From contig CAWCKH010000005.1 in assembly GCA_963796055.1 (NCBI GenBank), positions 128,001 to 192,000 on the forward strand: a stretch of DNA of 64,000 bases, read 5' to 3'. How positions within the stretch are numbered: the stretch's first letter is position 1; each line of letters opens with the position of its first letter. Shown here piece after piece: positions 9,930 through 11,796 of this stretch. The translations under genes were made by a program, and so were the position numbers. This stretch comes from an uncultured delta proteobacterium. GTDB lineage: Bacteria; Myxococcota; Myxococcia; Myxococcales; Myxococcaceae. Below the pieces are notes generated by a model. That model ran no database searches. It was not told where the DNA came from and saw nothing but the letters and a program-made list of their open reading frames with translations.

Positions 9930-11441
9930 ATGGCCCACCCCCCGACCACCCCCGCAGACGCCGCGCGCACTCGTGCCGCGGAGCCGGTGACCTCCGAGCC
10001 TCCGGCGAAGCCGGCCACCCACGACACCGCGCCTCCACCGGCGCTGCTCGACTTCATGGTGCAGCAGTGGAAGCCGGCCAGCACCCGGATGCCGCCGAAG
10101 CTGCGGAACGCCGCCGCCTTCGCCGCGCGCCGTCGCGCGCTGTCAAAGCTGTTCCCCGGCGAGACCCTGGTCGTCCCCACCGGGCACGAGAAGGTGCGGG
10201 CCAACGACACCTACTACCGCTTCCGCCCCGGCACCGACTTCTACTACCTGACCGGCAACCTCGAGCCGGACTGCGTGCTGATGATGGTCCCCGAGTCGGG
10301 CGGCGGGCACCGGGACGTGCTCTTCGTCGAGCCGAACCCGGGCAAGAGCGACTCGACCTTCTTCACCGACCGCAACAAGGGCGAGCTGTGGGTGGGCCCG
10401 CGGCTCGGCGTGCCGCAGAGTCAGGCCCGCTTCGACGTCCACGAGGCCCGGGCACTGTCCGAGCTCCCCGGGGCGCTGGGCGCGCTGCGCGGGCCGGCCA
10501 CCCGCCCGGTCCGGGCGCTCCGGGGGATGAGCCCCGCGGTGGACGCCACGCTCGAGGAGACAGCCCGCGACAAGGAGCTGGCCACCGCGCTGTCCGAGAT
10601 GCGGCTGCTCAAGGACGCCCAGGAGGTCCGCGAGCTGTCGGCGGCGATCGCCTCGACCAGGCGCGGCTTCGAGGACGTCATCGCCGCGCTGCGGACCGCA
10701 CGGCACGAACGCGAGGTGGAGGGCATCTTCAACCTCCGCGCCCGGGTGGAGGGCAACGACATCGGGTACAACACCATCGCTGCCGCCGGCGAGCACGCCT
10801 GCATCCTCCACTGGGTGAAGAACGGGGGCGCGCTGCGGCCCGGAACGCTGCTGCTGCTCGACGCCGGGGTGGAGGCACACACCCTCTACACCGCGGACAT
10901 CACCCGCACCCTGCCCATCTCCGGCCGCTTCAGCCTCGAGCAGCGGGAGATCTACGAGCTGGTCCACGCAGCGCAGGCCGCGGCCTTCGCCCAGGTGAAG
11001 CCGGGGAAGGACTTCCTCGACCCCAACCGGGCGGCGATGAAGGTGCTCGCCGAGGGACTGGAGCGGCTGGGCATCCTCGACGACGCGGCCGTTGCGCTCG
11101 CCGACCAGAACCAGTTCTACAAGCGCTATTCGCTCCACAACGTGAGCCACATGCTGGGCCTGGACGTGCACGACTGTGCCCAGGCCCGCGCCGAGACCTA
11201 CAAGTTCGGCCAGCTCAAGCCGGGGATGGTGCTCACCGTGGAACCCGGCCTCTACTTCCAGACCGACGACCTCACCGTTCCCGCGCGCTACCGCGGTATC
11301 GGCGTGCGCATCGAGGACGACGTCCTGGTCACCACCCGCGGCATGCGGAACCTCTCCGCCGACTTCCCCAGTGAGGCCTCCGAGGTCGAGGCCTGGATGG
11401 CGAAGGTGTGGAAATCGCAGGGCAAGCGCACCCGCGCTTGA
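9930..11441 (+). CDS. pepP: Xaa-Pro aminopeptidase
   Basis: AMP_N domain; LLDAG, YTADITRT, HMLGLDVHD, TVEPG, RIEDD. Confidence 0.92.
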   Translation: MAHPPTTPADAARTRAAEPVTSEPPAKPATHDTAPPPALLDFMVQQWKPASTRMPPKLRNAAAFAARRRALSKLFPGETLVVPTGHEKVRANDTYYRFRPGTDFYYLTGNLEPDCVLMMVPESGGGHRDVLFVEPNPGKSDSTFFTDRNKGELWVGPRLGVPQSQARFDVHEARALSELPGALGALRGPATRPVRALRGMSPAVDATLEETARDKELATALSEMRLLKDAQEVRELSAAIASTRRGFEDVIAALRTARHEREVEGIFNLRARVEGNDIGYNTIAAAGEHACILHWVKNGGALRPGTLLLLDAGVEAHTLYTADITRTLPISGRFSLEQREIYELVHAAQAAAFAQVKPGKDFLDPNRAAMKVLAEGLERLGILDDAAVALADQNQFYKRYSLHNVSHMLGLDVHDCAQARAETYKFGQLKPGMVLTVEPGLYFQTDDLTVPARYRGIGVRIEDDVLVTTRGMRNLSADFPSEASEVEAWMAKVWKSQGKRTRA

Positions 11442-11467
11442 CACTCGACGCGGACGGTCATTACCGT
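11438..11467 (+). promoter_or_regulatory. Putative sigma70 promoter for the met operon leader
   Basis: TTGACA (11438-11443), 18 bp, TACCGT (11462-11467); GTG of the leader ORF follows 8 nt later. Confidence 0.6.
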
Positions 11468-11475
11468 CCGCCCCC

Positions 11476-11580
11476 GTGAGGAAGTTCGCTCCCCAGATGC
11501 GTCGAATTACCGCGCGGCCCATGCACATGCGTGGCCCGGGCGGGCGTTCCGTCGCCGGGGAGTGTTGTCGGTGTTGTTGA
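11476..11580 (+). CDS. Putative Cys/Met-rich leader (attenuator) peptide, 34 aa
   Basis: MRKFAPQMRRITARPMHMRGPGGRSVAGECCRCC*; four TGT codons just before the stop; directly upstream of metY. Confidence 0.65.
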   Translation: MRKFAPQMRRITARPMHMRGPGGRSVAGECCRCC

Positions 11581-11796
11581 CCGACCTCCTCTCCCGACCG
11601 ATCAGGGGCGCACGCCCGGGGCCGACAGGAGACGGTGGTCTCCTCCCCGGGGTGAAAGCACGTCCCTCGAGTCCCGCAACATCCGACGACTCCCGCTGAC
11701 GCTTCTCCCGCCGTGAGGTGACCGCCAGGTTGGCCCCGGGGTCCGAACGCCCCCGCGCTTCCACCCAGGCAGCACCCACCAGAAGGAGAAGCACCC
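11558..11796 (+). promoter_or_regulatory. Putative translational attenuator (alternative helices, anti-SD)
   Basis: 11558-11577 pairs with 11676-11694; 11615-11626 pairs with 11729-11740; GCTTCTCC 11701-11708 is complementary to the RBS GGAGAAGC 11785-11792. Confidence 0.6.

Follow-up and report, generated by a model that had tools for sequence, protein, structure and literature searches.

A Met- and Cys-codon-rich leader before the metY-metX-thrA operon of a myxobacterium as a candidate ribosome-read attenuator

What controls methionine synthesis genes in a myxobacterium whose metY-metX-thrA operon is preceded by a long, unannotated 5' region? The operon lies in a 64,000-nucleotide (nt) stretch of an uncultured delta proteobacterium of the Myxococcaceae (contig CAWCKH010000005.1 of assembly GCA_963796055.1, positions 128,001 to 192,000), referred to here as the window. 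A first-pass annotation had proposed that a short, leaderless open reading frame (ORF) ending in Cys codons precedes metY, and that stalling of the ribosome on those codons frees the metY ribosome-binding site (RBS). The analysis described here indicates that an unannotated regulatory leader before metY-metX-thrA is real. The leader has conserved Met codons, a Cys run that tracks metY, and mutually exclusive helices that reach an anti-Shine-Dalgarno (anti-SD) tract, and therefore we regard it as probably a ribosome-read attenuator. It would respond to methionine as well as to cysteine and turn the operon on when either charged tRNA is short. It would work by occlusion of the RBS, probably together with Rho.

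The promoter-like site TTGACA-18-TACCGT, the GTG at 11476, the 34-codon ORF with its ECCRCC end, the TGT Cys codons, and three internal Met codons, all listed by the first-pass annotation, are present in the sequence (Table 1). Internal Met codons stand at positions 8, 16, and 18 of the ORF (11497, 11521, and 11527), and all four Cys codons (30, 31, 33, and 34) are TGT, which makes up 13.4% of Cys codons in the genome background. With 3 Met and 4 Cys in 33 internal codons, against 1.5% Met and 1.1% Cys in the background, the ORF is enriched in end-product codons. The spacing between promoter and start suggests that it is leaderless or nearly so. A search for MetY in 61 genomes recovered all 12 same-genus relatives, and 11 of these carry both the promoter-like site and an in-frame leader; the exception (L020) is a 68% complete genome. 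The site is also present in distant copies found with a hidden Markov model (HMM). A generic promoter scan did not call a promoter at 11438-11467 because TACCGT matches at only three of six positions, but the pattern TTGAC[AG]-N17/18-TAnnnT occurs only 16 times in 5.5 Mb of the genome. The upstream gene pepP is not required, as the promoter is kept beside other upstream genes in other clades. Five RNA runs had word shares of 0.05 to 0.11 with the sequence, and in four of these, compared as contigs only, depth on the leader was 2 to 4. One RNA contig spans 11492-11650 alone, and these data are uninterpretable.

Table 1. Features of the leader and of the operon behind it (positions in the window)
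Feature	Positions	Strand	Description
pepP (Xaa-Pro aminopeptidase-like)	9930..11441	+	upstream gene; stop codon overlaps the -35 box
Promoter-like site TTGACA-18-TACCGT	11438..11467	+	TTGACA 11438-11443, TACCGT 11462-11467
Leader ORF, 34 codons	11476..11580	+	begins with GTG, 8 nt past the -10 box; lacks an SD; stop TGA 11578-11580; ends E-C-C-R-C-C
Met hairpin	11519..11534	+	holds Met16 and Met18, overlaps the start of region 1; 6 bp in 22/22 genus sequences
Conserved core codons Met-x-Met-Arg-Gly-Pro-Gly	11521..11541	+	further Met at 11497
Region 1 (leader strand of helix P1)	11533..11550	+	Arg-Gly-Pro-Gly codons and 3' neighbors; pairs with 11605-11623
Cys tract (Cys30, 31, 33, 34)	11563..11577	+	local pairing with 11580-11594; in one sub-lineage only, alternatively helix A with 11676-11694
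Region 2 and alternatives	11604..11667	+	P1 with region 1, or local hairpins 11615-21/11645-51, 11627-33/11638-44, 11604-10/11661-67, or helix B
C-rich, G-poor stretch, candidate Rho loading site	11682..11781	+	C/G 1.7
Anti-SD tract	11701..11708	+	pairs with 11785-11792, p 0.98
Helix B 3' strand	11729..11740	+	closes a long rod enclosing the anti-SD; 7-bp core 22/22, full helix 19/22
metY SD (AAGGAG) and GTG start	11783..11799	+	sequence
metY, O-acetylhomoserine sulfhydrylase	11797..13089	+	TIGR01326, 653 bits, cut-off 495
metX-like homoserine O-acyltransferase	13086..14243	+	TIGR01392, E 1e-68, best match, below equivalog cut-off
thrA/metL-like aspartate kinase-homoserine dehydrogenase	14240..16714	+	NF006959, 686 bits, cut-off 726; best match

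The ORF, including its stop, measures 105, 108, 111, or 114 nt in all 22 aligned genus sequences, and the spacer behind it takes 11 lengths from 209 to 221 nt. Among the metY-type copies, an in-frame ATG, GTG, or TTG without an SD stands 7 to 11 nt past the -10 box in 35 of 36, yet the distance from the -10 box to the core takes all three frames. In 12 copies the start is farther away, at 23 to 28 nt (in one case counted from a -35 match that lies farther off), and there GGAG precedes it. The 24-nt core is identical at 21 to 24 positions between genera whose thrA four-fold sites are only 41 to 57% identical, and two copies (L013 and L151) share 56 of 57 nt. By these comparisons of sequence, the leader ORF is under selection. 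An RNA-only element, either an unrecognized riboswitch or a protein-binding site with an incidental ORF, would fit the extreme nucleotide conservation of the core and a position equivalent to that of a SAM-I/IV (S-adenosylmethionine) riboswitch. It is nevertheless very unlikely, given that lengths change in triplets only with the in-frame start maintained, that starts which moved off the promoter in those 12 copies are led by an SD, that the frame decays behind a premature stop in L156 to L158, and that no Rfam family matches. In these three copies, a point change ends the ORF early, five codons past the core, and 1-nt insertions have later entered what used to be the 3' part of the frame.

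Alternatively, the ORF could encode a small Cys-rich protein with a function of its own, such as metal binding, and the RNA structure would be incidental. Several residues are conserved and CC-x-CC could bind metal, but the N-terminal half and the number of Cys (0 to 7) vary freely, the codons pair with the downstream spacer, and the family copies are always single-copy and directly before a Met operon. Five of six leader peptides tested had no match in Pfam or NCBIfam. We give this explanation hardly any credence. Two sub-threshold poly-Cys matches to these databases, both of the L150 peptide, were judged to be due to chance.

The leaders form a family that extends beyond copies with a Cys run. 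Run against all 363 order genomes, a peptide profile found 33 matches at E<2e-6, in six genera of one family (Myxococcaceae); besides the genus of the window, the ORF recurs in five other genera, always in frame. There was no strong member outside the Myxococcaceae, either elsewhere in the 363 order genomes or with a wider profile on 401 genomes of the phylum. A covariance model found 26 strong single-copy matches in 151 family genomes, and a pattern scan of metagenomes yielded 25 loci, 23 of them with metY readable downstream. Ten of 16 weak HMM matches (E above 1e-4) were inspected, and none was a leader or near a met gene. For comparison, 47 distinct copies were chosen by the core motif; three loci were left out, two because they are truncated and one because its thrA is broken. 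In L149 (genome G187), the leader is intact and the thrA behind it is truncated or rearranged.

The codon content of the leader differs with the operon behind it. The 36 metY-linked copies all have 2 to 7 Cys codons after the core, with 1 to 6 Met, and Cys occupies each of the first two Cys positions in 36 of 36. In contrast, all 11 thrA-linked copies lack Cys after the core and have six Met; their operon consists of thrA followed by two metB/metI- and metC-like genes, with no metY. A translated-looking leader with a conserved Cys run is thus supported for the metY-linked copies, but cysteine as the sole signal is not, given the Met-rich core of the family and the 11 homologs without Cys after it.

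A Cys-only translational attenuator resembling mycobacterial Ms5788A, with the Met codons as relics of pairing in this genus and only a stall on the Cys run freeing the RBS, has to be weighed against sensing of both amino acids. The near-invariance of the first two Cys codons in metY-type copies and the members that have just 1 or 2 Met would suit it, as would a leaderless Cys-only ORF that exists in the same genome. Two folding results point the same way: the rod closed by helix B is commonest when the Cys run is covered (18 of 24), and in 14 of 24 window-clade and 7 of 9 sister-clade sequences the RBS is more occluded than in shuffles if the 3' half of the leader is free. However, the first core Met is retained in 45 of the 47 copies, and the leaders that do serve as Cys-only controls, those of cysM-like genes, have no internal Met. 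In addition, just 4 of the 22 genus sequences have an intact helix A, the energy gap in the window is equal for a Cys stall and for the stop codon, and the Cys codons are not paired with the SD itself, unlike in Ms5788A. A Cys-only device thus seems unlikely.

The second leaderless-looking ORF in the window genome has 25 codons, ends in CCCCR, lacks internal Met, and precedes a cysM-like gene (L186:1274-1367; G000:C4, about 3434220-3434313, plus strand). A terminal Cys run without internal Met is in frame in 10 of 11 genus members; the other (L242) is frameshifted. This leader is followed by a short C-rich spacer. Among 310 candidate leaderless short ORFs in the genome, four pass a Cys-run/Met-rich filter, and two of the four, the metY and cysM-like leaders, precede sulfur amino acid genes. 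One family offers a natural experiment, in which Met-only, Met-plus-Cys, and Cys-only leaders stand before transsulfuration, sulfhydrylation, and cysteine synthase genes, respectively, beside riboswitch-controlled orthologs.

The codons of the leader also take part in predicted RNA structure. The leader region folds better than shuffled controls (z -3.46), and alternative helices overlap the regulatory codons, with P1, local hairpins, and helix B competing. P1, the pairing of region 1 with region 2, is the best-kept helix, being present in 22 of 22 genus sequences and beating shuffles in 46 of 47 homologs. Cognate P1 pairing is stronger than cross-clade pairing in most clades (in the window clade -36.9 versus -25.7 to -30.1 kcal/mol), the sister clade excepted, and one pair swaps from G-C to A-U across clades (12 versus 9 sequences). 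The Met hairpin shows almost no variation, with 98.8% of cells paired in 28 cross-genus sequences; mimicry of the tRNA-Met anticodon by its loop was ruled out, as the loop varies. The local helices of region 2 are kept in 21 to 22 of 22 genus sequences. An anti-SD fitting its own SD is visible in each clade, although only 14 of 47 beat shuffles. The C-rich stretch lies at the 98th percentile of 3845 gene-upstream windows, a background that includes coding DNA, and 46 of 47 homologs lie above the 90th. The helix P1 (11533-11550/11605-11623) and the C-rich, possibly Rho-loading spacer were both missed in the first pass.

The local hairpins and the anti-SD:SD helix described in the first pass appeared in the folds. 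Helix A appeared as well, but with the conservation given above it is not a conserved OFF element; helix B has a 7-bp core kept in all 22 genus sequences, and its extension 11605-10/11748-53 is weakly kept (at least 80% of pairs in 10 of 22). The Cys tract does not pair with the metY SD, which pairs with a separate anti-SD, and pairing of the Cys tract with SD-proximal sequence beats shuffles in 2 of 24. A helix of the last Cys codons with the invariant GCARCAC before the SD, also seen in folds, was significant in only 2 of 24 and was rejected.

In the proposed mechanism, the ORF would be translated from the 5' end of the mRNA, and the position of the ribosome would decide how the nascent spacer folds. 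With the ribosome paused at Met18, the Met hairpin would be melted and region 1, from about 11535 onward, would still lie beyond the entry channel and be available to form P1; P1 would block the local hairpins, and the helix-B rod would then trap the anti-SD, giving the ON state. A pause on the Cys codons would prevent their downstream pairing and again favor the rod. Unhindered translation to the stop would instead allow the local hairpins to form and the anti-SD to close on the metY RBS, and in this OFF state Rho would probably terminate transcription on the untranslated C-rich RNA.

Folding was modeled with ViennaRNA, and the edge of the ribosome footprint was taken to lie 11 nt from the P site. 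In a transcript cut before the SD, helix B formed (p 0.99) when the Cys codons were covered and helix A formed when they were free, which bears out the mutually exclusive folds first proposed. Helix B also formed in this transcript with a ribosome at the stop. In the window clade, covering the Cys run gave the rod most often (18 of 24), and the stop codon position was the most closed state in 21 of 24, which may partly reflect truncation. The Cys-free clade folds, in these models, as a clean relay, in which P1 and a 3:4 helix trap the anti-SD with the ribosome on the core Met. With region 1 free, 3:4 pairing was obtained in 10 of 11 sequences of this clade, versus 5 to 7 of 11 otherwise; opening of the RBS was cheapest at the Met stall in 9 of 11, and the real leader beat shuffled leaders in 10 of 11. 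In the sister clade, L029 and L031 show the same pre-SD relay and L119 and L148 only its first step, and full-length energies go the opposite way.

Other results weigh against sensing of methionine and cysteine through such a switch. In the full-length window transcript, the closed fold lies below any RBS-open fold by 12.1 kcal/mol with a Met stall, 15.7 with no ribosome, 17 to 18 with a stall at Cys30 or Cys31, and 17.1 at the stop codon, and the proposal that a Cys stall frees the RBS finds no support in these full-length folds, as the anti-SD:SD state at Cys30/31 is as far below the open folds as at the stop. There was no consistent switch at equilibrium in metY-type copies, where the mean opening energy was 11.4 to 11.8 kcal/mol under all seven masks (32 sequences; ribosome footprints of -15/+14), and in 5' truncation scans the SD pairing was nearly constant in most of 22 sequences. 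Whatever the condition, exposure of the anti-SD was predicted for few sequences, the window not among them, with a strict measure near zero almost everywhere. The Met-stall model fails in these folds for both clades: in the window clade, the Met stall gave the rod in 7 of 24, fewer than any of the other six conditions, and the real leader did no better than shuffled ones (5 lower, 14 higher), and in the sister clade the comparison gave 0 lower and 7 higher of 9. Covariation scores of P1 were not clearly above the shuffle control (19-156 of 500). Some genus members retain only 1 or 2 Met, and since the core motif was used to pick the 47-copy set, invariance of the core within it is partly circular. 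The correlation of Cys with operon type amounts to one or two events and allows no statistic, because the 11 thrA-linked copies come from two related genera. The ON fold, not being the lowest-energy fold, would need to be a cotranscriptional kinetic state. The existence of a switch is well supported by sequence conservation, and the folding models do not agree on its direction.

In a different explanation, the nascent peptide Met-x-Met-Arg-Gly-Pro-Gly is a ligand-induced arrest peptide that stalls the ribosome on region 1 at high SAM, methionine, or homocysteine, blocks P1, and turns the operon off. Covering region 1 does give the OFF fold, the anti-SD:SD helix, in L151 and L153. Six codons separate the core and the Cys pair in 25 of 25 pattern matches, though the pattern permitted 5 to 8; Gly28, Ala27, and Arg24 vary synonymously; the leader stands in place of a SAM riboswitch; and RAPP-type arrest motifs are described as acting in other upstream ORFs (uORFs) (PMC12360218). 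However, synonymous sites of the core do not vary either, as two helices would require, and hairpin geometry explains the fixed spacing equally well. In addition, one copy has His for the core Arg, and three copies stop five codons past the core. Induced arrest is, on this evidence, distinctly improbable, even more so than a Cys-only device.

The attenuator reading can be compared with known systems. In the classical attenuators trpL, hisL, thrL, and ilv, end-product codons in a short ORF overlap alternative helices, followed by an intrinsic terminator with a U run. The leader described here shares the end-product codons and the alternative helices, but it has no intrinsic terminator; none was found on the plus strand in 11000-12000. 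In its features, it resembles the Ms5788A polycysteine attenuators as they are described in 10.1101/834739, in that a short ORF with a GUG start, leaderless there and putatively so in the window, has a terminal Cys run and stands before sulfur genes with no intrinsic terminator, SD sequestration is proposed, and there are several leaders per genome. However, Ms5788A is described as having a 97-nt spacer, over which the SD region is paired with the Cys codons themselves (10.1101/834739), whereas the leader in the window has a 216-nt spacer with a multihelix relay, a conserved Met-rich core, a Cys run that is dispensable in one clade, a methionine synthesis target, and a myxobacterial host. Actinobacterial cys leader peptides, in the parts of a survey that treat them, likewise have Cys codons near the stop and no terminator, and pyrimidine tracts were suggested there as Rho sites (PMC1262725); those parts report no conserved RNA element before actinobacterial methionine operons and no Met codons as a signal. 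A predicted cysS leader, uORFC-8-2, is described with the same plan of regulatory codons and alternative helices, and unlike the window leader it has an intrinsic terminator (PMC8632094).

The uORF/Rho attenuators tnaC, speFL, mgtL, corL, and cruR, as presented in PMC12360218, have a long untranslated C-rich spacer after the uORF, as does the leader in the window, although their signals differ. A rho gene scores above the cut-off in the window genome, and Rho action at the leader is a candidate mechanism. For mgtA, completed translation is described as restructuring the leader toward OFF (PMC12360218), the logic also seen in the folds of the Cys-free clade. In a candidate fthC uORF of Streptococcus, methionine sensing was proposed through initiation with fMet-tRNA and an intrinsic terminator (PMC11109978); the likeness lies in sensing of methionine through uORF translation, and the passages on fthC describe no internal Met cluster. 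The relevant portions of PMC8632094, PMC13236596, and PMC2965389 add Cys leaders or nothing on Met leaders. Searches of the open-access literature, supplements aside, for Met/Cys leaders brought up no attenuator with Met codons that has been tested and no account of met leaders from myxobacteria; the fthC hypothesis comes nearest. If the attenuator reading is true, Cys "ribulons" would extend beyond the Actinobacteria, although attenuation by leader peptides is itself a textbook mechanism. ThrA of the genus with Met-only leaders is 89 to 90% identical to proteins labeled Archangium at NCBI, and therefore the Met-only form should be testable in cultured strains.

Of the three genes behind the leader, metY scores over its cut-off, and the metX-like and thrA/metL-like genes are best matches that score below theirs. 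The expected lack of a SAM riboswitch was borne out, as there was no Rfam family at E<1.9 in 10500-12500, nor in eight further loci; the same Rfam library did find SAM-I/IV riboswitches (RF01725) in sister genera (L014 and L033), at the same place before orthologous metY-metX and directly behind a similar promoter. Therefore, the site appears to be one of methionine/SAM feedback. The window genome, which is 98.5% complete, has no CysE above the cut-off; a cystathionine synthase/lyase-like gene is present, as is a CBS-like gene that scores 499.8 bits against a cut-off of 510. Homocysteine made by MetY could feed cysteine synthesis too, via CBS and cystathionine lyase. Thus, dual sensing of methionine and cysteine would fit the metabolism of this organism.

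A more specific version of the attenuator is conceivable, though we hold it only tentatively and think it more doubtful than not. It would be a terminator-less Met attenuator with inverted logic, in which pausing at Met codons or failed initiation exposes the switch strand, so that a shortage of initiator tRNA cannot lock the operon off. The Cys module would be added or dropped according to the source of homocysteine (sulfide with metY, cysteine with metB/metC), and the whole device would have been swapped with SAM-I/IV at the same promoter.

Other leaders were seen in the same searches. A genus designated g13 (L015 and L221-L240) has a different leader of 23 to 24 codons, with alternating Met and Cys and a GG-x-x-PAAG end, before metY in 18 of 19 loci examined, and leaders of this type also stand before the separate metY in three (L252, L253, and L255) of four genomes of the Met-only clade, the fourth (L254) having been read on the opposite strand. 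In L063, L071, L079, L092, and L093, whose records are labeled Actinomycetota, Thermodesulfobacteriota, and Deltaproteobacteria, unrelated Met/Cys-rich leaders ending in GG-x-x-M lie 100 to 145 nt before metY and are followed by a hairpin and U run; L096 carries a terminator-less Met/Cys leader. The covariance model matches neither the g13 leader type nor the terminator-type leaders of other phyla, and homology to them is unsupported.

Near the promoter, 11450-11471 is a perfect 9-bp inverted repeat that spans the promoter spacer and the -10 box, with a compensatory variant in some relatives; an operator or a hairpin at the 3' end of pepP are possible roles. Between pepP and the leader, no terminator was found. 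Besides the main rho, the window genome has a second rho-like gene at G000:C4:2732133-2733230 (474 bits, below the cut-off of 509). In the L033 operon with a SAM-I/IV riboswitch, the thrA behind metX is reduced to its homoserine dehydrogenase (C-terminal) half. The metY(-metX-thrA) operons of other myxobacteria (L036, L040, L043, L044, L045, and L048) have short 5' regions with no leader ORF or riboswitch, and they carry ATC...GAT-like palindromes near the promoter, which we take to be possible operators of a SahR/SamR-type regulator.

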